Source: Elusimicrobia bacterium UBA5214 (GTDB lineage: Bacteria > Elusimicrobiota > UBA5214). From it: 64,000 nt of DNA. Shown piece after piece: positions 6,027 through 58,396 of this stretch (its first letter is position 1; each line of letters opens with the position of its first letter). The stretch spans positions 129,315-193,314 of the forward strand of contig DHVG01000013.1 in NCBI GenBank assembly GCA_002412545.1, given 5' to 3'. The notes below the pieces were generated by a model. It saw only the letters and a list, made by a program, of their open reading frames with translations, did not search any database and was not told the DNA's origin. The position numbers and the translations under genes were made by a program.

Positions 6027-7181
6027 TTATTTGTTAATTTCCTTTTTGACTGCTTCAAATACTTCGTCAACTTCTATCGCCTGTAAACATTTTGGTTCAT
6101 TATACCGGCAACGACCTGTTTTCTGGTCATACACATGAATACAAGGACTACAAGAAATGTTCTTAAAGAACACTTTATGTCTATTACCTCTCGGACCATA
6201 AATTACTGGTGTTTCCGGACCAAAAAATGAAATGGTTGAAATATCAAGGGCATAAGCAATATGTAAAGGACCAGCGTCATTAGAAATAAATAATCTTACT
6301 TTTGAGATAAAACTTACCAATTGCTTTAAGTCAAGTTTACCTGCAAGATTTATTATTTTGTTTAAACTATTAGTTGCATTAATTATCTCTCCTACATAAT
6401 GTCTTTCATCTTCTGCCCCAATCAAAACAATTTTTACTTTGTTACTAAGATTAGCGATCCTGTCAATTAAACTAACAAATTTTTCTTTTGGCCATCTTCT
6501 TTGAAGACCAAGTGGACCAGCATTCACATTTATTCCAATTATATTATCCGATTTGTTAATTTCATATTCTTGCAATAAATTTTTTATGGTTTCATCAGAG
6601 GGAGTTTTTATTTCTGGATGGTATATTTGGTTAATAGTAGTCACTCCCACTGCGGCATTAATAAAATTTTCAGAAACATGCCAGTAATAATTAAAGGGAA
6701 TGTTAACATCATGAAAATTTCCTCTCCATATATCCCATGCATGAAAACCTACCCTTTTTTTTGCTCCGGCAAGGAAACTGAAAATTGCAGAAAATCGTGT
6801 AAAGAATTCAAAATCAAATAATATGTCATATTTCATTTTTCTTATTTTTATAAGTAGTTTTAGAACGTTTAATATAAAGGGAGTAAAATTTTTTTCTAAT
6901 CTTAATACTAATACATTGTCCAATTCTGGAATTAGTTCACATATTCCTTTATTCTGATGGAAGGTAAGAAAATCAATTCTTACTTCGGGATACCTTTGTC
7001 TCAACAACTTTATAGCAGGTGTAGTTTCTATAATACTTCCAACTCCCCAGAATTTTATTATAAGAATCTTTCCCACTTTTTCTATATTTACTCTTTTCCG
7101 TAGCCAGTTAAATGGCTGCAAAATAAGGCATAACAATTTGCCAACCCATAAATCTATTCTACGCATTGTCCATAATGTCAT
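6027..7181 (-). CDS. glycosyltransferase family 9 (heptosyltransferase-like)
   Basis: GT9 C-terminal signature NDAGPLHIAYALDISTISFFGPETP; 384 aa. Confidence 0.75.
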   Translation of the reverse strand: MTLWTMRRIDLWVGKLLCLILQPFNWLRKRVNIEKVGKILIIKFWGVGSIIETTPAIKLLRQRYPEVRIDFLTFHQNKGICELIPELDNVLVLRLEKNFTPFILNVLKLLIKIRKMKYDILFDFEFFTRFSAIFSFLAGAKKRVGFHAWDIWRGNFHDVNIPFNYYWHVSENFINAAVGVTTINQIYHPEIKTPSDETIKNLLQEYEINKSDNIIGINVNAGPLGLQRRWPKEKFVSLIDRIANLSNKVKIVLIGAEDERHYVGEIINATNSLNKIINLAGKLDLKQLVSFISKVRLFISNDAGPLHIAYALDISTISFFGPETPVIYGPRGNRHKVFFKNISCSPCIHVYDQKTGRCRYNEPKCLQAIEVDEVFEAVKKEINK

Positions 7182-7890
7182 TTCTATTTTTCTCCTTAGA
7201 ACCGAGGTAGAGATAAATGTAAAATTAATCCCATATTTTAAGTATCTTGCTGACCGTTATTGTCCAAGTTAACAAAGTAACCCCAATATTTGGACAGCAA
7301 GGTGTTTTTGGGAACTAGCAATGAAGATTTAAACTTTAAGTTGTTGATTAATAAATCAAAAAATAACTAAACTCGCCAATATTATTTGTAAATCGGGTAC
7401 AGTAGAAATAGAGGAAACTATTAGTAAAAAGTCGTACCACCCTGTCTATTTTGGAATCTTTTGAGTAAATACGGTGCGGTTTGCTTAAAAATTTCTGTTT
7501 AGAATAAAATCCTCTGTTTACGGTGTTAGCGAATAGATGTCCTTTATTATAAAGTTATAAAATTATCCTTAATTATTATTTTAACAAAAATATTGGGAAA
7601 AAACAAGGTTTTAGGTAGGAATTTAATTCAGAAAACTTGTTAAGACCACTCAAAGATTAGGACATAAGTTAGAATTGGTAATTAAAAGTTAAGGTTCTAT
7701 TTGAAAGAAATAAGCAATGATATTCTTTTCGTTCACTTACAGGCAAAATTTTTGTTTATCCGAATATTTATAGGACAAATTGATAACTGTTATTTTTTTA
7801 TTCTTTTTTCAATTTAATCTCTTTTGAATTAAACTTTATACGTCATTTCAGTACAATCATCTTTTTTGTATCCACAAAACTACGGCTTCA

Positions 7891-7937
7891 CCCTCACCTT
7901 TTTCCTCTCCCCTCGGAGGGAGAGGGTCGGGTGAGGG
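7891..7937. repeat. GC-rich nested inverted repeat (two-stem hairpin) just past the stop of the LamG/T9SS gene
   Basis: Outer stem ccctcacc (7891..7898) pairs with ggtgaggg (7930..7937); inner stem cctctccc (7904..7911) pairs with gggagagg (7918..7925). Strongly GC-rich against an AT-rich background; no U-tract follows on the minus strand. Confidence 0.8.
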
Positions 7938-7945
7938 GCAATCTT

Positions 7946-8952
7946 TTACTTCAATACTACCATTTTCTTAGTGTCAACAAAACTACCGGCTTTCACCTGG
8001 TAGTAGTAGATTCCTCTTGAGAGTTCGTCACTTTGATTAAATACAACTTTATGCGGACCAGCCGTTTGCCACTCGTCAACCAAGGTTGCTACTTCCTCTC
8101 CACCAACATTGTATAACTTTATGGTTACCTGACAATCCTGAGCAACGGAATACTCAATTGTTGTTGCTGGATTAAACGGATTTGGATAATTTTGTCCCAG
8201 AGAGTTGACATCTGCAGTTGCTGATGGACTAACTACGATTGTCCGTGGCTTACCGGGTTTCACATTTCCTTCGTAATGTGCTTTAATTTCTTCAGCACTT
8301 AAAGCACGGTTGTAAACCCGAGATTCATCGATTGTTCCTTTGAACCAATTGTAATCTCCGGAAAGACAGTGTGCTCCAATTTGTAAAGGAACATCATTAG
8401 TCACTATATGACCTGAAATTAGTCTGTTGCCTGTTTCAACACCGTTTACATATATTCGCTCAACAGAACCATCGTATGTCCCAACGATATGCGCCCACTC
8501 ACCAAAGGTAAGATTAACTGACGAAACTATGTAATTCCAAGTATTAGTATAAAGTACTAACTGAGGAGTTATTCCATTAGGTTGCAACTCCAGTACATAA
8601 CCACTTCATCCTCCCCACTTTGAACGATTATTTGATGATCTCCCGTTGTTTTAATAGGCTTAATCCACGCTTCAATTGTAATTGCATCTGTAATATCGAA
8701 ATTACTCGAATCATTCACACGTACATAATCATCCACTCCATCAAAACTTAGTGCTTTGCCAACTTTACCATCTACCCAGGTCGCACCGTAGATTGTTCCA
8801 TCATTACTATTTCCTGAATAGTCATGGGCGATTGTTCCTTCCCCTTCATCAAAACTCCAGTAACCAACTAAACCTTCTTCTGCTTTAAGCCGCTGTGTAA
8901 GAAGAAATAGTCCAAATTCTACCATAACCAAAAATCCAAAAATTTTTTTCAT
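7946..8952 (-). pseudogene. secreted LamG (concanavalin-like) domain protein with T9SS C-terminal sorting domain, split by an apparent frameshift
   Basis: Track ORFs 8569..8952 (signal peptide, LamG N-half GLVGYWSFDEGEG...IEAWIKP) and 7946..8587 (LamG C-half ...GEWAHIVGTYDGS..., then NYPNPFNPATTIEY...YYYQV T9SS-type tail) overlap by 19 nt in different frames. The downstream ORF starts at TTG. Frame switch near 8587..8625 beside a C-rich run; could be a real pseudogene or an assembly indel. Confidence 0.55.
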
Positions 8953-18761: not shown

Positions 18762-20906
18762 TTATTTAAAATGTTCTACCGTTATTGAAAAACTCGTTGA
18801 CCAAGTTTTATCTGGTTTGATGTTCAACTTCCAGTGAGGAAGAAAAATTGTCCCTTGATAGGTGCGTTCAAAACCAGATTCGGAAGAAGAAACTGTCTCC
18901 AAAGGATAATACCAAACATTTACTGGTTTAGGAAAGTCAAATCTTATTTTCATTTTTTGGTTTTCATCAATTCTTTCCCAAGAATTCTTTACTAAAAGTT
19001 CACCACCATCATCTATTTTTTCAGATAAAGCAAGATTAAATTCACAAGCAAACCAAATACCAATTACAGAGGTAGAAAAATTACCAAGACGATAATTAAC
19101 CTGAATTAAAGCCGAATTATCAACTACAATTTCTTTTTCTAAAGAAAGAGGGATTTTTTCTTCACCAGACCAAACTACACCCCGTCTGCGAAAATGAATC
19201 TTAATTTGATTTTTACCCTTTTTTACTTCCAAATTGTAAGATTGATTAACAAAATCACCTTGCTCACCGTATTGACATTTCCGAAAATCATCCCAAGAAG
19301 TATGCGGATGAAGAAAATGGTCAATTAGACAATTACGATTGTACCAATCGTAAAAAAGGTAATTTTCCAATCCTTCTTCTTTAACTTTTACCAGTTCATG
19401 AATAGTTTTTACTGTTTCACTCTCCTTTGGTCGTTCTTTCAAATATTCTTGTAAATGTTTATGATATACTTCTGACCGACGAGTAAGAACATTGACTAAA
19501 TTTACTCCCGCTGGAATAAAATCCCATTCAAAAAGTGTTCCTCCTTGAGCTAAATCAAAATATAAATTATAAGTTGAAGTTTCTACAATAAGTTCTTCTT
19601 TACCATCACAATTAAAATCAATTAAGTCAGAATGTATTTTTTCCTTTTTTATTAAGGAATTAACAATATCTTCGGCTTTAATTAAATTGCGATAAACTGC
19701 TTGTCGTAAATGGGGTAAATAAAGCCCACCAAATACACCGTGCCAATAAGCACAATTACATTGTCCTGCATAGAGCAAATCCAGCGCTTGCTGGATTTGC
19801 GGTGTAAGGTGTAAGGTATAAGGTGTAAGAGTACTTTCTTTACCTTTCACTTTACACTTTACACTTTCAACTGCTTTATTAACTTTTTCACTAACATAAA
19901 GCATTTTTTTATGAATATTATTTGCTTCTGGATATTTAACTAAAAAATTGCGCCAAAAACCACCCTTTAAAAAGGGACGTAATTTTTCTTTAACTACTCC
20001 CGGTAAAACATCTAAATTTTTTAATACTCGAGAAAAATCTTCTCCTATTCTTATATTTGGTATTGCCCATTCCGACATTTCAAAATATGCCGCTGTCGGA
20101 AGATATATCCTTCCACGTGGAGAAAACTGGTCTAAATACTCAGAAAAAGTCATTGAGATTAACCAATCAGCATTCGCTTCTAAAAGAGTAAAAAATTTAT
20201 CCAGCCATCCATCACCATACACATGTTTATGTGTCTCTGGCCAAATACCAAATTTTTCACCGTCATCAATAATAGTTAGACCAATATCTTCTTTTCTCTC
20301 ACTGTAAGAACGTAAATATTCAATTATTTCCTCTGGAATACCAAAAGGGATAAGGTAACGTAAACGTTGACTAATTGGAAAAATTCTTAAAGTTTCTCCT
20401 TCTTCTTCCGTAAGAAAATAACCGGTTAGGTCTTCGGGATGAATACCGGCAGAGAGAAAATGTGTGTCATCAACAATTGTATACTCAATTTTACTTTCGG
20501 CAAGTGATTTCGCTAAATGTGGTTCCCACACTCTTTCCGCTAACCAAACACCACTTGCAGTTATCCCAAATTCTTCCTTCAAGAATTTAGTTTGTTTAGC
20601 AATTTGTCCAAATTTATCTCGGTCAGGTATTACCGGAAGAATTGGCTCGTAATAACCACCGGTAAGTAGCTCAAGCCGTCTATCTTTAAGCAATTTTTTT
20701 ACCCGGTCAAGAAATTCGGGATGGTGTTCTTTTAGCCATTCCCAAAGTATACCACTACAATGAAAGTTAAGTTTAATCAACGGATGTCTGAGTAAAACTT
20801 CAATAAATGGTGCATATGCTTTTTGGTATGCTTTTTCAAAAATCTCCGGGAAATTACCTATTGGCTGATGATTATGAATTCCAAAAAGAAAATATATTTT
20901 TTTCAT
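18762..20906 (-). CDS. glycoside hydrolase family 57 protein (alpha-amylase / 4-alpha-glucanotransferase-like)
   Basis: GH57 hallmark GIHNHQPIGNF near N-terminus; 714 aa. Confidence 0.8.
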   Translation of the reverse strand: MKKIYFLFGIHNHQPIGNFPEIFEKAYQKAYAPFIEVLLRHPLIKLNFHCSGILWEWLKEHHPEFLDRVKKLLKDRRLELLTGGYYEPILPVIPDRDKFGQIAKQTKFLKEEFGITASGVWLAERVWEPHLAKSLAESKIEYTIVDDTHFLSAGIHPEDLTGYFLTEEEGETLRIFPISQRLRYLIPFGIPEEIIEYLRSYSERKEDIGLTIIDDGEKFGIWPETHKHVYGDGWLDKFFTLLEANADWLISMTFSEYLDQFSPRGRIYLPTAAYFEMSEWAIPNIRIGEDFSRVLKNLDVLPGVVKEKLRPFLKGGFWRNFLVKYPEANNIHKKMLYVSEKVNKAVESVKCKVKGKESTLTPYTLHLTPQIQQALDLLYAGQCNCAYWHGVFGGLYLPHLRQAVYRNLIKAEDIVNSLIKKEKIHSDLIDFNCDGKEELIVETSTYNLYFDLAQGGTLFEWDFIPAGVNLVNVLTRRSEVYHKHLQEYLKERPKESETVKTIHELVKVKEEGLENYLFYDWYNRNCLIDHFLHPHTSWDDFRKCQYGEQGDFVNQSYNLEVKKGKNQIKIHFRRRGVVWSGEEKIPLSLEKEIVVDNSALIQVNYRLGNFSTSVIGIWFACEFNLALSEKIDDGGELLVKNSWERIDENQKMKIRFDFPKPVNVWYYPLETVSSSESGFERTYQGTIFLPHWKLNIKPDKTWSTSFSITVEHFK
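19801..19871. repeat. inverted pair of heptamer arrays inside the GH57 CDS
   Basis: GTGTAAG x4 (19802..19829, one variant GTATAAG), 15-nt spacer, then TTTCAC/TTTACAC/TTTACAC/TTTCAAC (19845..19871) in inverted orientation. In-frame; encodes ...VKCKVKGKESTLTPYTLHLTP... Confidence 0.85.
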
Positions 20907-35134: not shown

Positions 35135-36159
35135 ATATTTTTACCTCGGATAATTTTTAATTCTATTTCCAGAATATAAACCCGTGCAAAAAGACTCTCA
35201 AATTCCGGAGAAATAAATTTTTTTAATTTCATTTCGTCTTTTTCTGTAGTTACTATTAACTCTTGTCTTTTAGATAAAAACAACAAATCTTTTTCCTGAT
35301 ACCAATGGTGGTCAGGAAAATTGTACCGATAAACAACTTCTGCTCCAAGTTTTTCTACCGTTTTTTCGAAAGCATATGGATTAGCAAGTGAAGAAAAGAT
35401 TACGACCCTTTCACCCTGCAAAAAATTTGAATCTACTACTAAAGAATTATCACTTAATAAATGCAAACTTAAAGGTTGATGAATACTTTCAACAATTGGC
35501 ACTTGTGGACAAATCTTTCTTAAATAGATATACCATCTTTCTAATTCTTCTAAATTAACTAAATTAACATTGGTTAAAAGAATTAAATGTGCCCGTTTCA
35601 ATGCCGATGCTGACTCACGCCGAGTGCCCAAAGGAAAAGATGGCTCATCTTCTAAAGAGGTCAAACTATCCAAACAGACAATATCTAAATCTCTTTTTAA
35701 AGACCAGTGTTGGAATCCATCGTCAAGAATTACTAATTCCGAATTAAATTTTTCTTTTGCTAAGAGTCCAGTCTTATATCTATCTTTACCAACAATTACC
35801 GGTACACCTTCCAATTTTTTTGTCAAAAGATAAGGTTCATCGCCGGATTCTTCAAGAGTAACTAAAATTTTTTTTCCATCGGAAACAATTACTACCCCTG
35901 ATACCTGATACTTGATACTTGATACTTGTCTTCTATAACCTCTACTTAATACGGTAATTTTCTTACCTTTATCTCTCAACTCTTTCGCGAGAACAATTAC
36001 AGCAGGTGTTTTACCTGCTCCTCCAAGTGTAATATTTCCAATACTAATCACTTTTATTTCTAATTTTTTACTTACCGTAAACAATCTCTTGATTTTTACT
36101 CCTAAAGAATAAAAAAATGAAAGAATATATAAAATAATTTTTAAAAAAGTGGTTCCCAT
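35101..36159 (-). CDS. lpxK: tetraacyldisaccharide 4'-kinase
   Basis: P-loop GNITLGGAGKTP and VLSRGY motif. Track start 36219 is 59 nt inside the upstream GT2 gene; start preferred at ATG 36159..36157 (MGTTFLKII...), 1 nt after the GT2 stop. Confidence 0.85.
   Translation of the reverse strand: MGTTFLKIILYILSFFYSLGVKIKRLFTVSKKLEIKVISIGNITLGGAGKTPAVIVLAKELRDKGKKITVLSRGYRRQVSSIKYQVSGVVIVSDGKKILVTLEESGDEPYLLTKKLEGVPVIVGKDRYKTGLLAKEKFNSELVILDDGFQHWSLKRDLDIVCLDSLTSLEDEPSFPLGTRRESASALKRAHLILLTNVNLVNLEELERWYIYLRKICPQVPIVESIHQPLSLHLLSDNSLVVDSNFLQGERVVIFSSLANPYAFEKTVEKLGAEVVYRYNFPDHHWYQEKDLLFLSKRQELIVTTEKDEMKLKKFISPEFESLFARVYILEIELKIIRGKNIWEEKIKQVCG
35899..35926. repeat. heptamer tandem array TGATAC(C/T) x4 inside lpxK
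   Basis: tgatacc tgatact tgatact tgatact; in frame, encodes ...RQVSSIKYQVSG... in the region after the SRGY motif. Confidence 0.85.
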
Positions 36160-48245: not shown

Positions 48246-49553
48246 TCATTGTAATCGTTGTTCACAATCGTTGTAATCAAGCAGTTTCTTAATTAATTCA
48301 ATATTTTTTTCTACTGCACTTTCTTCATTTCTTACTGCTTGTAAAGCGTTAATCCCAATTTTTTCTCGGAGAGCAGGAGAACCAAGTAAATTCAAAATTT
48401 GTAGTTTCAGTTCTTCACTATTTTTAACCTGTATTGCGGCTGAAGCAGAAAGCAATCTCTCAACTATTTCCTGGAAACTTTCCACATAAGGTCCAAAGAT
48501 TACTGGTTTGCCCAATGCGGCGGGTTCAAAGATATTATGTCCTCCTTGAGGAACTAAACTACCACCAATAAAAACAATAGTAGCTAAGGCATAAGCATTC
48601 ATTAGTTCACCGTAAGTATCCCATAAAATACAGTTTATAGTTGATAGTTCATAGTTAATAGTTAAACTGCTTTTACGGAGGAAAGAAATATTTCTTTGTT
48701 TAAGCAAGTTTTCAATTTCGGGAATCCGTTCTAAATGGCGGAGAGCGAGAATAAGTTTCAAATTCGGATATTTCTTTAAAACTTCTAAATAAACTTCAAG
48801 GATAATTTCTTCTTCACCTTCTCTTGTGCTTCCACAAACCCAGACCACCTCCTCAGGTTTAAAACCCAACCTCTTGAAATTGGTGACTGGGTGAATGGGT
48901 GACTGGGTGACTGCGTCATATTTCATATTCCCGGTTATTTTCACCTTCTCTCTCGGTGCACCTAAGGCAATAATCCTTTCTCCATCAGTATTCTCACGCA
49001 TAGCAAAAAAGTCAATGTATGACAAAACTTCACAAATAAAAGGATAAAAGATTTTATACCGTTGATAACTTTTATTTGAGATACGTCCATTAACTAAAAC
49101 AATTTTTGCTCCAAATATTTTTGTTTGCTGGATAAAATTAGGCCAAATTTCACTTTCAATCAGAATCAATAAAGCCGGTTTTATAAAAGACAATATCTTC
49201 CTTATCGCCCATTTAAAATCTAAAGGTAAATAAATTACCAAGTCAGTTAAATTTTCTTTTTTCGCTAATTCCCTACCCGTCGGAGTAACCGTAGAAAGAA
49301 GAATCATTTTTTCTGGAAAAATTTTTCGCAAACCGATAATTAAATTTGTTGCGGTTCTAACTTCACCTACTGAAGCAGCATGTATCCACAACCAATCTTT
49401 TGACTGATTAATTTTTTTCTTTATCTCTGAAGGAAAAAATCCCAAACGTTGGCTAAAATCAGAAAAGATTTGTCCTTTGTACTCAAAAAAATAAAAAAAG
49501 AAAATAAAAGGGAAACTGAGATAAAGCAGTAGTTTGTAAAACAAGTAATACAT
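48246..49553 (-). CDS. waaA: 3-deoxy-D-manno-octulosonic acid (KDO) transferase
   Basis: GT30 N-terminal signature WIHAASVGEV; 435 aa; adjacent DUF374 gene as is common for waaA. Confidence 0.85.
   Translation of the reverse strand: MYYLFYKLLLYLSFPFIFFFYFFEYKGQIFSDFSQRLGFFPSEIKKKINQSKDWLWIHAASVGEVRTATNLIIGLRKIFPEKMILLSTVTPTGRELAKKENLTDLVIYLPLDFKWAIRKILSFIKPALLILIESEIWPNFIQQTKIFGAKIVLVNGRISNKSYQRYKIFYPFICEVLSYIDFFAMRENTDGERIIALGAPREKVKITGNMKYDAVTQSPIHPVTNFKRLGFKPEEVVWVCGSTREGEEEIILEVYLEVLKKYPNLKLILALRHLERIPEIENLLKQRNISFLRKSSLTINYELSTINCILWDTYGELMNAYALATIVFIGGSLVPQGGHNIFEPAALGKPVIFGPYVESFQEIVERLLSASAAIQVKNSEELKLQILNLLGSPALREKIGINALQAVRNEESAVEKNIELIKKLLDYNDCEQRLQ
48637..48664. repeat. heptamer tandem array ATAGTT(G/C/A) x4 inside waaA
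   Basis: atagttg atagttc atagtta atagtta; in frame (..SLTINYELSTINCIL..). Confidence 0.85.
48882..48913. repeat. octamer tandem array GGTGA(C/A)TG x4 inside waaA
   Basis: ggtgactg ggtgaatg ggtgactg ggtgactg; in frame (..YDAVTQSPIHPVTNFKR..). Confidence 0.85.
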
Positions 49554-53464: not shown

Positions 53465-54697
<1,233 letters not shown>

Positions 54698-54729
54698 TTA
54701 ACTATCCACTATAAACTATCAACCATCAA

Positions 54730-55806
54730 CTAAATTATAAGCATCGCATCGCCGTAACTGTAGAAACGATATTTTTCTTTCTTCGCTTCCTCATAAAGTT
54801 GTAATATTTTTTCTCGTCCAGCAAAAGCAGAAACTAAAATTAAATTCGTTGATTTCGGTAAATGAAAATTGGTAATCAGCGTATCCACAAGTTGAAATTG
54901 ATAACCGGGGTAAATATAAGCATCAGTATATCCTTCACCCGGGTTAAGAATCCCATTTTTAACCTGCAATTCCAACACTCTTACCACTGAAGTACCACAA
55001 GCAATAATCTTTTTCTTCTTTTTTTTAGCCGAATTGATTTCTTTTGTGGTATCCGTAGGAAGAAAAAAGTATTCTTTCTCCAAATTATGTTCACGGATAT
55101 CCGCACTTTTTACCGGTTGAAAAGTTGCTGGACCAATATGCAAAACAAGATAAACAATTTTCACTCCCCGGGCAGATAACTTTTCTAAAAGTTCTTTCGT
55201 AAAATGTAAACCGGCAGTCGGTGCCGCTACCGCTCCTTCTTCTTTAGCATATACGGTCTGGTATCTCTCCCTATCCAACATCCTCTCCGTTCTCCGTTCT
55301 CCCTGCCTCGCCGGCAGGCAGGCGTTTTCCGTTTCTTGCGCATTTCTCTTTATGTAGGGTGGTAAAGGCATTTCACCGATTTCTTTCCAATAAGCACGTG
55401 GTGTTGAACTAAACTCTAAAATTGAATAGTTTTTTTCTTTCCCTTTGAGTACTGCTTTCAAACTATGAGAAAAAAAAATTTCTTTGTTCACTGCAACCTG
55501 AGAATTAACCAACCCTTTCCATAATTTAGGACTGATTTCTTCTAAAAGTAAAACTTCCACTTTACCACCGGTATCCTTTTTACCTTGTAATCTTGCCGGA
55601 ATAACCTTGGTCCGGTTAAGCATTAAACAATCTCCCGGAGAAAAAAAATTAACTATTTCCGAAAAAATTCTATGCTCAATTCTATTTTCTTTCCGGTGAT
55701 AAACCAAAAGCCGTGATTTATCTCTTTCGGCTGAAGGATACTGGGCAATCATTTCTTTCGGCAAAAAATAATCATAACTCTCTAATCTAAAATCTATTTT
55801 CCCCAT
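54730..55806 (-). CDS. queA: S-adenosylmethionine:tRNA ribosyltransferase-isomerase
   Basis: PLPPYI box, ERYQTVYA, AAPTAGLHFT signatures; 358 aa. Confidence 0.95.
   Translation of the reverse strand: MGKIDFRLESYDYFLPKEMIAQYPSAERDKSRLLVYHRKENRIEHRIFSEIVNFFSPGDCLMLNRTKVIPARLQGKKDTGGKVEVLLLEEISPKLWKGLVNSQVAVNKEIFFSHSLKAVLKGKEKNYSILEFSSTPRAYWKEIGEMPLPPYIKRNAQETENACLPARQGERRTERMLDRERYQTVYAKEEGAVAAPTAGLHFTKELLEKLSARGVKIVYLVLHIGPATFQPVKSADIREHNLEKEYFFLPTDTTKEINSAKKKKKKIIACGTSVVRVLELQVKNGILNPGEGYTDAYIYPGYQFQLVDTLITNFHLPKSTNLILVSAFAGREKILQLYEEAKKEKYRFYSYGDAMLII
55284..55322. repeat. heptamer array TCTCCGT x3 plus GC hairpin inside queA
   Basis: tctccgt tctccgt tctccct (55284..55304) then hairpin cctgcc-tcgcc-ggcagg (55302..55318); encodes the extra segment ..ETENACLPARQGERRTERM.. 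between PPYI and ERYQTVY. Confidence 0.8.
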
Positions 55807-55949
55807 TATTTTTTAAATTCGCAATAATTCAGTTCTACTGAGAAATTGATTTTTGAGCGATTTTGATATTTTTAGTAAAAACAAATGAAGAAATCGTTTT
55901 CGCCAGAGGCGAATCTGCCTTGGACAGAAAAAAATTGTCCTGTCTGAAG

Positions 55950-55964
55950 CCGATGTCACATCGG
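55950..55964. promoter_or_regulatory. perfect 7-1-7 palindrome CCGATGTcACATCGG (candidate operator) in the queA upstream / SpoIID downstream spacer
   Basis: Exact dyad symmetry; neighbouring hairpins ttcgcc-aga-ggcgaa (55899..55913) and ccccg-ttctgag-cgggg (55987..56003). Confidence 0.4.
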
Positions 55965-56115
55965 ATGAGTTTGACAATTATACCTGCCCCGTTCTGAGCG
56001 GGGGATTTCCGAATGCAGTTTTTGCGTTAAAAAAATATCACTGAGCGAAAAAATCTAATTTCTCAGGAAACTTACCTTTTTTCCAAACCCACGAATAAAC
56101 CACTTGACTATAAAA

Positions 56116-57625: not shown

Positions 57626-57635
57626 TTTCTAATAC

Positions 57636-57731
57636 GATTCAAACAGATAAAATCTCCGATTCAAACGAGATAACAACCAAAATTTAGTCAGGTCTTCCGT
57701 CTGTTCGAATCCGTTTGAATCTGTATGAATC
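57636..57731. repeat. iteron-like array: two direct CGATTCAAAC copies (22-bp period) and three tandem inverted GTWYGAATC copies (10-bp period)
   Basis: cgattcaaac at 57635 and 57657; gttcgaatcc / gtttgaatct / gtatgaatcg at 57703..57731; followed by hairpin gtcgcc-tcttc-ggcgac (57772..57788). Lies between queH stop and DUF2905 start. Confidence 0.8.
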
Positions 57732-57817
57732 GTCTTTTGGATTATCTGTCTGCATCTCGCCTTTTTTATCTGTCGCCTCTTCGGCGACCTGCCGACGAGG
57801 CATGGCGGCAATCTGCG

Positions 57818-58396
57818 TTATTTCTTCTCTGCGTAATCAGCGCTTCTTTTCTGCGTAATCTGCGTTATACTATAGAGACAGCCACAATATTTTTGTGAAT
57901 ATAAACCTAATTCTTTGGCTTTCTTTTTCTCTGGATAATAACTATTCCGCAAATCCTGATAACAAAATTTTACTCCGTTTTTTTCTTCTAATTCTTTACC
58001 AATTCTTTTAATCTCTTCGTGCTTTTGCTGCGGACTGGAAAGAAGCGAACTGCTGAAATAAGTAAAACCATTTCCCCGGGCATATTTTGCCGTCTTCTCT
58101 AAACGCAAACGGTAACAAAAAAGATGTCGTTTTTCCGCATCATCGGCGAAATCTTTCACCGCCTTCAGCCATGCTTCCTGACTATATCCGTCATCATAAA
58201 TCACCGGGAATCCGATTTTTTCACTCAACTGCTTCACTGCTTCCCGCCGTTTCCGGTATTCTTCTTCGGGATGGACATTTGGATTAAACCAGAATACCGT
58301 AACCAATCCCGCCCTTTCAATGAAAGAACGGGATAATTCTTCATAAATTCCTAATCCGCAAATCGCACAACAAAAATGCAAGAGTAATTTTTCCAT
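57818..58396 (-). CDS. queH: epoxyqueuosine reductase QueH (DUF208)
   Basis: LLLHFCCAICG, FWFNPNVHPEEEY, YSQKYCGCLYS Cys motifs; 192 aa. Last ~40 nt hold a ~20-nt direct duplication (GATTACGCAGARAAGAA). Confidence 0.85.
   Translation of the reverse strand: MEKLLLHFCCAICGLGIYEELSRSFIERAGLVTVFWFNPNVHPEEEYRKRREAVKQLSEKIGFPVIYDDGYSQEAWLKAVKDFADDAEKRHLFCYRLRLEKTAKYARGNGFTYFSSSLLSSPQQKHEEIKRIGKELEEKNGVKFCYQDLRNSYYPEKKKAKELGLYSQKYCGCLYSITQITQKRSADYAEKK

Follow-up and report, generated by a model that had tools for sequence, protein, structure and literature searches.

A 21-nucleotide hairpin repeat within queA of an Elusimicrobia bacterium, its probable origin from xerC, and its counterparts in distant bacterial phyla

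What is a GC-rich palindrome doing inside the reading frame of queA, in an AT-rich genome region, and where did it come from? The question arises in a 64,000-nt stretch of Elusimicrobia bacterium UBA5214 (assembly GCA_002412545.1, contig DHVG01000013.1, positions 129,315 to 193,314), hereafter called the window. A first-pass annotation, made from the sequence alone, had described in queA an in-frame run of about 18 residues that are extra compared with Escherichia coli QueA, encoded by a heptamer triplet followed by a GC hairpin, and had taken it for a miniature insertion that preserved the frame. The sequence is as described: on the plus strand, positions 55284-55302 hold 2.7 units of TCTCCGT (Tandem Repeats Finder, TRF; 100% matches) and the hairpin CCTGCC-TCGCC-GGCAGG adjoins them at 55302-55318. 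Chance expectations are 0.02 for the 17-mer hairpin (up to 3 mismatches) and 0.01 for the heptamer triplet. The contrast in composition is also real, as the GC content at the site reaches 58-62% in 60-nt windows, versus 34.8% for the whole window, and the site, at 72% GC, is among the two GC-richest 40-nt windows of the 64 kb. The features needed for the argument are the following.

54730-55806, minus strand: queA (S-adenosylmethionine:tRNA ribosyltransferase-isomerase), the host gene; an open reading frame (ORF) of 358 aa with domain PF02547
55285-55333, minus strand: 49-nt block, peptide TENACLPARQGERRTE, also present, at 100% identity and without a shift of frame, in xerC of this genome
55303-55323, minus strand: family A hairpin GCCTGCCTGCCGGCGAGGCAG, 21 nt (22 nt when the next G, at 55302, is counted)
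55285-55302, minus strand: heptamers GGAGAAC GGAGAAC GGAG (TRF), 3' of the hairpin in the coding sense and identical to the xerC array
55324-55333, minus strand: heptamer remnant A ACGGAAAAC, 5' of the hairpin in the coding sense, left end of the xerC-identical block

The host gene is otherwise an ordinary queA. Its product is 100% identical to database protein P0001, has a full-length Queuosine_synth domain (PF02547), carries the motifs PLPPYI, YQTVY and AAPTAGLHF and keeps all 74 invariant columns of the alignment A1 (by construction). The translated insert region reads ...PLPPYIKRNAQETENACLPARQGERRTERMLDRERYQTVY. In an alignment of 19 QueA sequences, in which the length of this loop varies among orthologues, the two closest orthologues, P0002 (80% identity) and P0003 (73%), have KRRMLDTGYRMLDRERYQ where the window QueA has KRNAQETENACLPARQGERRTERMLDRERYQ, an excess of 13 residues. 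Against the Bacillus subtilis structure 1YY3 (E 6.2e-85) the excess is 19 residues, close to the original estimate of 18, and against Thermotoga maritima 1VKY (E 5.6e-95) 23 window residues stand opposite 2 residues of the chain; both alignments split at the insert only. No distant orthologue sharing the same segment was found in the QueA alignment, and the loops of relatives hold different hairpins. The AlphaFold2 model has a mean predicted local distance difference test score (pLDDT) of 78.5 and falls below 50 at residues 160-195. The prediction is compatible with a flexible surface loop, which is not proof of one.

The probable donor lies in the same genome. In the coding sense, the block (A ACG GAA AAC GCC TGC CTG CCG GCG AGG CAG GGA GAA CGG AGA ACG GAG) is identical at 49 of 49 positions to a stretch of xerC on contig L007, in the same frame, while the flanks are unrelated (ungapped comparison). 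Both genes occur in the metagenome-assembled genome (MAG) GCA_002400355.1, and such perfect identity suggests a recent copying event. The true XerC protein (P0121) contains ...LTDS TEN ACLPARQ GERRTE HSLF..., and GenBank also holds a 402-aa protein (P0010) in which 205 XerC-like recombinase residues are fused to QueA from TENACLPARQ onwards. This fusion corresponds to contig L006 (GCA_003530275.1, DPTL01000094.1; 4240-5446), which switches from xerC to queA exactly at window position 55333 and matches the window only from there downward. L006 is a chimera, assembled across the 49-nt repeat that the two genes have in common.

Comparison of xerC among relatives separates the two components of the block. 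In relative L011 the array reads tca ACGGAAA ACGGAAA ACGGAGA ACGGAA cac, without hairpin; the four units recur in the L007 gene, cleanly interrupted between AAC and GGA by 21 inserted nt, GCCTGCCTGCCGGCGAGGCAG. The xerC genes of L011 (91% protein identity) and L012 (83%) both have ACGGARA heptamers, and only the 21 nt are missing from them. Four heptamers are counted with and without the hairpin, so there was no target duplication, and the block without its hairpin has a lag-7 self-match of 0.95. Because the heptamers are native in xerC of relatives and only the hairpin is extra there, queA received the hairpin and xerC-type heptamers as one block. The heptamer triplet reported in the first-pass annotation is therefore xerC-type array sequence, the same array being found in L011 without hairpin: the 21-nt hairpin alone is the conserved unit, and the heptamers were carried along with it rather than belonging to it. 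The direction of transfer would be from xerC, or from an identical third copy, into queA, after entry of the hairpin into the xerC array.

The recipient site was probably an array as well. The block is absent from QueA of relatives L001 and L002. The loop DNA of L001 parses as GGCGGAT GCTTGAT ACTGGAT ACCGGAT GCTGGAT, and lag-7 self-similarity of the loop is significant in L001, L002 and L004 (P <=0.003). Since the loop of relatives is itself made up of degenerate heptamers, what the block displaced was a section of an array already there, and the site that it entered was not a clean one. Three relatives carry hairpins of their own in QueA. In the very loop that holds the window insert, L004 has GCCGCCAGAGGCGAGCCTCGCCCAGATGGGCGG, a 33-nt member of a family C described below (about 6797-6829), and L003 has a 24-nt palindrome, CCCCGCACCAAATTTGGTACGGGG (1044-1067), so that the QueA loop of two relatives is colonised by two different hairpin families. 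In L005, a 34-nt hairpin (-17 kcal/mol) lies in another loop (about 1000-1070).

Period-7 arrays are a general feature of the window, which contains four perfect runs versus none in 20 shuffles, and none of periods 4-6 or 8-12. Most of them lie inside long ORFs and have about 4-5 units each. Arrays of period 7 or 8, again with about 4-5 units, are found at 19801-19867, 35899-35928, 48632-48665 and 48878-48913, in frames of 724, 375 and 444 codons; in the pair 19801-19829 and 19838-19867, one array is an approximate inverted copy of the other (GGTGTAA / CTTTACA). Next to queA, tgt (53492-54670, minus strand) contains a perfect in-frame array of 4.3 CGCTGAA units at 54085-54114, where Tgt of L002 and L003 has a different, longer loop (KFKIESLKFKENKNYQ...). 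The spacer between tgt and queA (54655-54732) consists of short tandem arrays, CACAGATTT-type units and then 4.7 units of AACTATC. On the other side of the gene, the spoIID-queA spacer (55807-56115) is 309 nt long (in L002 it has 205 nt, in L004 6 nt) and holds several small GC-rich hairpins, including CCGATG-TCA-CATCGG and CCCCG-TTCTGAG-CGGGG, with no Rfam match; these could represent either additional mini-inserts or a small RNA.

In our reading, the queA insert is probably a recent DNA copy of the xerC block, in which a family A hairpin, GCCYGCCTGCCGGCGAGGCAG[G], is nested in ACGGARA heptamers. A heptamer array in xerC, common to relatives, would have come first; the hairpin would then have entered it; and 49 nt, namely the hairpin and 28 nt of xerC heptamers, would finally have been copied into the QueA loop, itself array-like in relatives. 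The likely route would be ectopic gene conversion or template switching between arrays sharing the AC-GGA pattern, and arrays, perhaps also hairpin tips, may be preferred as targets since they expose single strands. The 13 residues by which the putatively disordered PLPPYI-YQTVY loop of QueA was extended are probably neutral and presumably translated along with the others. The idea of a frame-preserving miniature insertion holds: the nearest orthologues are without the insert, an unrelated gene of this genome contains the identical block, and the hairpin core is dispersed.

This dispersal reaches far beyond the genome at hand. We scanned one genome per GTDB species with the 22-mer GCCNGCCNGCCGGCGAGGCAGG and retrieved at least 120 loci. 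There were at least 125 matches, at least 108 of which are unique copies from loci with less than 56% GC (median locus GC 42%), for a chance expectation that we estimate at about 0.01 in DNA of ~40% GC. About 16 of the matches listed are in high-GC genomes and, by our calculation, within the range of chance. The host, end and frame statistics given below refer to the matches listed. Judged by record titles, ~37 loci belong to Bacteroidota and ~39 to Patescibacteria (the candidate phyla radiation, CPR); the others include Omnitrophota, Elusimicrobiota, Ignavibacteriota, uncultured Gammaproteobacteria, Bdellovibrionales, Nitrospirae, Planctomycetota and one Bathyarchaeota contig. Cultured organisms are among the hosts (Aequorivita capsosiphonis DSM 23843, Zunongwangia pacifica MCCC M21534, Arenibacter sp. 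P308M17, Maribacter sp. 2307UL18-2 and Cyclobacteriaceae YHN15), and several contigs per MAG may carry the 22-mer. A lineage-specific 33-mer had no match in metagenome contigs, a collection evidently without the source metagenomes; a k-mer search of the family A loci, a set biased to family A, found no other cosmopolitan 15-mer; and a text search of the literature for 15-mer strings or encoded peptides found no publication.

The ends of this unit are sharp, as the twelve upstream positions are uniform in composition and the downstream preference is weak (+1 G 47%, +2 A 41%). The unit begins with GCCY and ends with CAGG, and its flanks have no conserved tag. Two positions were left free in the query: E8 is T at 102 of 105 sites and pairs with A20, and E4 is T at 58 and C at 45 of them. 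The hairpin has a 6-bp stem and a 5-nt loop, and its DNA fold is modest (-6.8 kcal/mol, z -1.9, with two possible registers). Neither Rfam search, of the whole window at gathering thresholds or of 55240-55380 with E up to 10, gave anything meaningful, and there are no tRNAs in the window.

Heptamers surround the unit at other loci too. The seven nucleotides upstream match the seven downstream at six or more positions in 18 of 106 sites (17%), versus 0.3% of controls, and the match is seen for k=7 only among the lengths 4-12. The array units differ from locus to locus (GGATATT, GGAAATT, GGACCTT, GGACTTT, GCAGATT, GTACAAA), and about 80% of family A sites lie outside arrays. Loci almost always hold a single copy, inverted pairs are uncommon, and perfect flank stems of at least 7 bp were met at 4 of ~100 sites in a search for longer inverted repeats.

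The unit may also be well suited to life within genes. The 22-mer has no stop triplet on either strand and is open in all frames, and 21 nt make seven codons; a length that is a multiple of three and free of stops would make the element tolerable in surface loops of essential proteins. About 77 of the 125 copies (~60%) fall within frames open for 150 codons or more; either orientation occurs, each of the six frames is used, and the encoded peptides include PASPAG[RG], xLPAGEAG and ACLPARQG. All ten hosts tested are bona fide housekeeping proteins: UvrB, an Era-like GTPase, the NAD-dependent ligase LigA, a RumA-type methyltransferase, KsgA, a P-type ATPase, a GT4 glycosyltransferase, DinB, the CCA-adding enzyme and TopA. 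Two of them show the empty site in a homologue. UvrB aligned with 9GY7 (lidffPASPAGGlkdyl / lidyfp-------kdfl) and Era with 9JKP (vlnrPASPAGGpegq / vmtrd-------daq) both have a gap of exactly seven residues at the element. These exact gains of seven residues and the unchanged heptamer count in xerC indicate a precise gain of 21 nt without target duplication. In L036 (4860-6215), the element lies inside the cysteine motif of a RumA-type methyltransferase (CQHFG-PASPAGGH-CGGC), where the seven extra residues might disturb the Fe-S cluster site.

We looked for a linked enzyme by clustering the ORFs of the 105 listed loci (eight kb each). No family occurs in more than 6 of the 105 and none is a transposase; the recurring neighbours (GT4, histidine kinase, Fpg, tRNA synthetase, AAA ATPase, PF05635) are all common. 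PF05635, annotated as '23S rRNA intervening sequence protein', lies within ~0.5 kb of the hairpin in 3 of the 105 loci, including L067 (617-1027); its host range looks similar, and these loci are too few for an association.

Some loci place the 22-mer in a larger context. In Acidobacteriota / Baltobacteraceae of ~60% GC (L050, L069, L060) it forms the tip of a larger hairpin whose flanks are conserved across genomes (...ttgtaattagcccggcacgga, the 22-mer, gc.gagcggagtgccggg...), which may be a structured element of its own. In a Chitinophagaceae contig (L026, about 1230-1310), tandem 22-nt variant repeats, GCCTGCCTACCGGCAAGGCAG, end in an exact family A copy, all inside an open frame of 620 codons (GLPTGKAGLPTGKAGLPAGEAG). 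Elsewhere, family A forms part of a larger repeated unit, whose flanking letters agree fully between several contigs (one such unit reads gatttaagaacaa, the 22-mer, gaacaacgatttaag); such cases are L017, L044 and L090 in one Bacteroidales MAG and L013, L071 and L093 in one Bacteroidetes MAG.

The source organism itself has three family A copies in about 85 kb. The third, 19/21 identical, is in an Fdh/NuoG-like gene (L007:18433-18453), in the same frame (...N A S P P A R Q G...) and within other heptamers: GGTTAAC GGTGAAC (21 nt) GGTGAAC GGTTAAC. At the hairpin, the encoded protein has 13 residues more than distant homologues; a close hairpin-free orthologue was not retrieved by a word-index search, whose homologues were at most 63% identical.

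Two further hairpin families are designated B and C. The copy of family B in the window is as follows.

57776-57816, plus strand: family B hairpin in the queH-DUF2905 spacer, with core CCTGCCGACGAGGCATG at 57788-57804

Its core matches that of the queA hairpin with 2 mismatches, and it folds with -13.9 kcal/mol. A second copy, ~78% identical over 41 nt, lies antisense in topA of the same genome (about L007:9289-9329), near codon 437; it seems older, as L012 has a diverged version. Compared with L012, topA (L007 7991-9982) has two more small palindromic inserts near codons 211-235, GCCAAG-T-CTTGGC and CCGAT-GAA-ATCGG. The queH-DUF2905 spacer (57626-57817) is 192 nt long, versus about 50 nt in L002 and L004, and contains inverted decamer repeats and two GC hairpins, one of them the family B copy; a direct repeat of 22 nt (57822-57864) extends into the end of queH. 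Other spacers of the window, at 7880-7950 (-16 kcal/mol) and 53484-53522 (-11), hold two related long, GC-rich hairpins of the form CACCCTCACC...CCTCTCCCCTC GGA GGGAGAGG...GGTGAGGG, and a similar 'ccctctccc...gggagaggg ttagggtgagggg' adjoins family A copies in L106 and L113, from other phyla.

Family C emerged when we scanned metagenomes from the side of the array, with the pattern GGAAATTGGAAATT N{15,30} GGAAATTGG. Among the 140 matches, 23 have a GC-rich insert: the exact family A unit twice, three 21-nt variants of it (e.g. with loop GGCAA), and, three times, a 30-nt hairpin GCCGCC-NNN-GGCGAGCCTCGCC-NNN-GGCGG, which defines family C. The scan also contained a GGAGTTG array with a 36-nt version of family C, as well as other hairpins (15, 18, 21 and 24 nt). 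In L004, the QueA insert has the 13-nt core and the outer stem in common with family C. The hairpin family escaped generic repeat finding in the window, its copies being too short or too few.

We infer from these copies that family A is a non-autonomous, ultra-small dispersed mobile hairpin, which would be moved in trans by machinery not encoded nearby. More tentatively, and with somewhat less than even confidence, we propose that it is a cosmopolitan 21-nt element of at least eight bacterial phyla, among the shortest in size of the smallest mobile repeats reported, inserted precisely and without target-site duplication (TSD) into single-strand-prone DNA (arrays, hairpin tips) by a mechanism as yet undescribed, and selected to be invisible in coding sequence. 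Together with sister families such as C and the arrays, it might be a general and so far overlooked cause of differences in loop length among essential proteins of Bacteroidota, CPR, Omnitrophota and Elusimicrobiota.

Several observations weigh against these proposals. At the level of the single locus, the block junctions in queA have no clear microhomology, and loss of the hairpin in L011 and L012 cannot be strictly told apart from its gain in L007. The pairs of empty and filled sites examined are one at the DNA level (xerC) and two at the protein level (UvrB, Era), and the mobility of family A is deduced from its copies, transposition itself not having been seen. The search of the 105 listed loci found no mobilising enzyme. 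There was a single match in 2.9 million viral contigs, which makes phages no obvious carrier, and the PLSDB plasmids had no family A, only GC-rich chance partial matches; with this near-absence and absence, no vehicle of horizontal spread is visible. As most loci are MAG contigs, binning errors are possible, and the single archaeal match is especially uncertain. Finally, a 22-nt sequence kept letter-perfect across phyla is not easily explained by known mechanisms.

Other explanations have to be weighed on the same evidence. The first dispenses with a dedicated element and sees in the 21 nt a passenger, spread by template switching or ectopic conversion between slippage-prone, often single-stranded arrays. 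It accounts well for queA, where 28 nt of donor flank were carried along, unlike what a transposase acting on fixed ends would produce, and it agrees with heptamer arrays being the preferred context and with the lack of a transposase nearby. Heptanucleotide repeats are moreover common, being the commonest long bacterial simple-sequence repeats, and are ascribed to polymerase slippage (PMC4679880, citing Mrazek 2007). This account explains neither the sharp ends at 105 or more sites, with no flank carried along, nor the cross-phylum identity, which copying within genomes cannot yield; ~80% of the listed sites are outside arrays, and UvrB and Era gained their exact seven residues in a non-repetitive context. 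We therefore regard it as unlikely for family A as a whole.

Still less probable, in our view, is a functional motif kept by selection, such as a protein-binding site or a structured RNA or DNA signal, with the queA copy serving in regulation. The extreme conservation, which extends to the free position E8 and its pairing with A20, would be expected of such a motif, and so might the larger conserved hairpin that the 22-mer caps in some Acidobacteriota loci. Against it stand the use of both orientations and all six frames, hosts that are unrelated genes and spacers, the lack of an Rfam match and the modest fold, and close relatives that are without the hairpin at the same sites. An ordinary lineage-specific expansion of the QueA loop by slippage or indels, GC-rich and palindromic by chance, fits the variable loop length and a genome rich in period-7 arrays, but is contradicted by the 49-nt identity with xerC and the presence of the 22-mer in many phyla, and is very improbable. 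Least credible of all is an artefact, a repeat-induced misjoin or adapter-like sequence: although the public contig L006 is misjoined at the 49-nt repeat, an internal block needs read support at both junctions, queA is identical in three assemblies (0 differences in L009 and L010), the unit lies in frame in conserved genes, in cultured isolates and in records titled like long-read assemblies, and no such oligo or adapter string appeared in the literature text search.

Two known sequence classes were considered and set aside. The repeat of type I-F CRISPR, which has the same CTGCC/GGCAG stem, does not apply as family A copies are solitary and without spacer arrays; a conserved RNA fragment (rRNA, SRP, tRNA) was rejected in view of the known sequences of these RNAs and the lack of an Rfam match.

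Returning to a mobile hairpin, which known elements does family A resemble? The small dispersed repeats SDR1-8 of Nostoc punctiforme and relatives, reportedly described by Elhai et al. in 2008, are said to be 21-27 nt hairpins inside tandem heptameric repeats, with several families sharing contexts. To judge from these features, the likeness is extensive: a sharp-ended unit of 21/22 nt with hairpin potential and no encoded protein, many near-identical dispersed copies within and between genomes, nesting in tandem heptamers, several unrelated families in the same contexts, and presence or absence at orthologous sites (here xerC, queA, UvrB and Era). SDR5 is regarded as a short mobile element, and SDRs have not been found outside Nostocaceae (PMC5861425). 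Family A differs in being present letter for letter in many non-cyanobacterial phyla, with more than half of the listed copies in protein-coding genes, some of them essential, the comparison with SDR1-8 being by description only. There is no 22-mer of cyanobacterial Nostocaceae among the matches listed, nor in plasmids. By analogy, the Nostocaceae SDRs would be the closest in kind, and the best match for family A would be an ultra-small hairpin repeat of the SDR/REP/RPE type.

The Rickettsia palindromic elements (RPE), reportedly described by Ogata et al. in 2000, are similar as palindromic selfish DNA that entered numerous unrelated housekeeping genes without loss of frame and is tolerated there as an additional surface peptide. 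They differ in size and range, as RPE-1 is ~100-150 bp and confined to Rickettsia, whereas family A, of 21 nt, is cosmopolitan, its hosts including Bacteroidota, Patescibacteria, Omnitrophota and Elusimicrobiota. The GC clusters and 'byp' elements of yeast mitochondria are GC-rich palindromic mini-inserts, also found in coding sequence. Like family A, they occur in AT-rich genomes; both, however, are organellar and of another size, and byps are skipped by the ribosome, whereas the QueA insert is open in frame and presumably translated.

Repetitive extragenic palindromic sequences (REP) and REPINs, which are associated with RAYT transposases, are tagged with GTAG or CGTC and occur also inside genes (PMC3733652, PMC3116915). 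Family A shares with them the short, GC-rich, imperfect palindrome, the dispersed and non-autonomous state and even the type of host, some REPs being in frame in the repair and replication genes uvrA, uvrB and polA (PMC3733652). In contrast to REPs, which are mainly extragenic and often inverted doublets, it has no GTAG or CGTC tag, consists mostly of singletons, ~60% of the listed copies being in long open frames, and is restricted to no single species or genus. A link to heptamer arrays is foreign to REPs. None of the 105 listed neighbourhoods of eight kb showed a RAYT. MITEs, miniature transposable elements of the inverted-repeat type, have terminal inverted repeats and a TSD and usually measure 50-500 bp, as opposed to 21 nt without TSD. 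An origin from IS200/IS605, as in PATE-like elements, would fit the absence of a TSD; the fixed tetra- or pentanucleotide target, 3' of which such elements insert by single-strand transposition, is not seen, upstream positions -1 to -12 being uniform.

The arrays, for their part, resemble known heptamer arrays, such as the LSSRs of Mrazek 2007, the cyanobacterial STRRs and the TAACTGA arrays common to Beggiatoaceae, Cyanobacteria and Bacteroidetes, which were described without inserts and for which horizontal spread was suspected without a known mechanism (PMC4679880). All are period-7 arrays of a few units that occur in distant phyla, in spacers and in some ORFs. The difference is that the arrays described here are preferred sites of GC-rich hairpins and form variable loops in QueA, Tgt and XerC. 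What is unusual about family A is its spread across phyla, its exact seven-codon stealth design and its tie to heptamer arrays.

In practical terms, such repeats lead to chimeric contigs and fused gene calls in MAGs, the GenBank XerC-QueA protein P0010 being an example, and inserts of seven or more residues mislead orthology assignment and the prediction of structures. As markers of strains, such repeats could be useful. In QueA, the insert marks the PLPPYI-YQTVY loop as a tolerant site. If our proposal is true, a 21-nt sequence without coding capacity has spread through genomes ranging from Flavobacteriia to the candidate phyla radiation and sits in UvrB, Era, LigA, TopA, XerC and QueA without breaking them, which would raise the questions of what moves or recreates the exact 21-mer without target duplication, and why heptamers are preferred.

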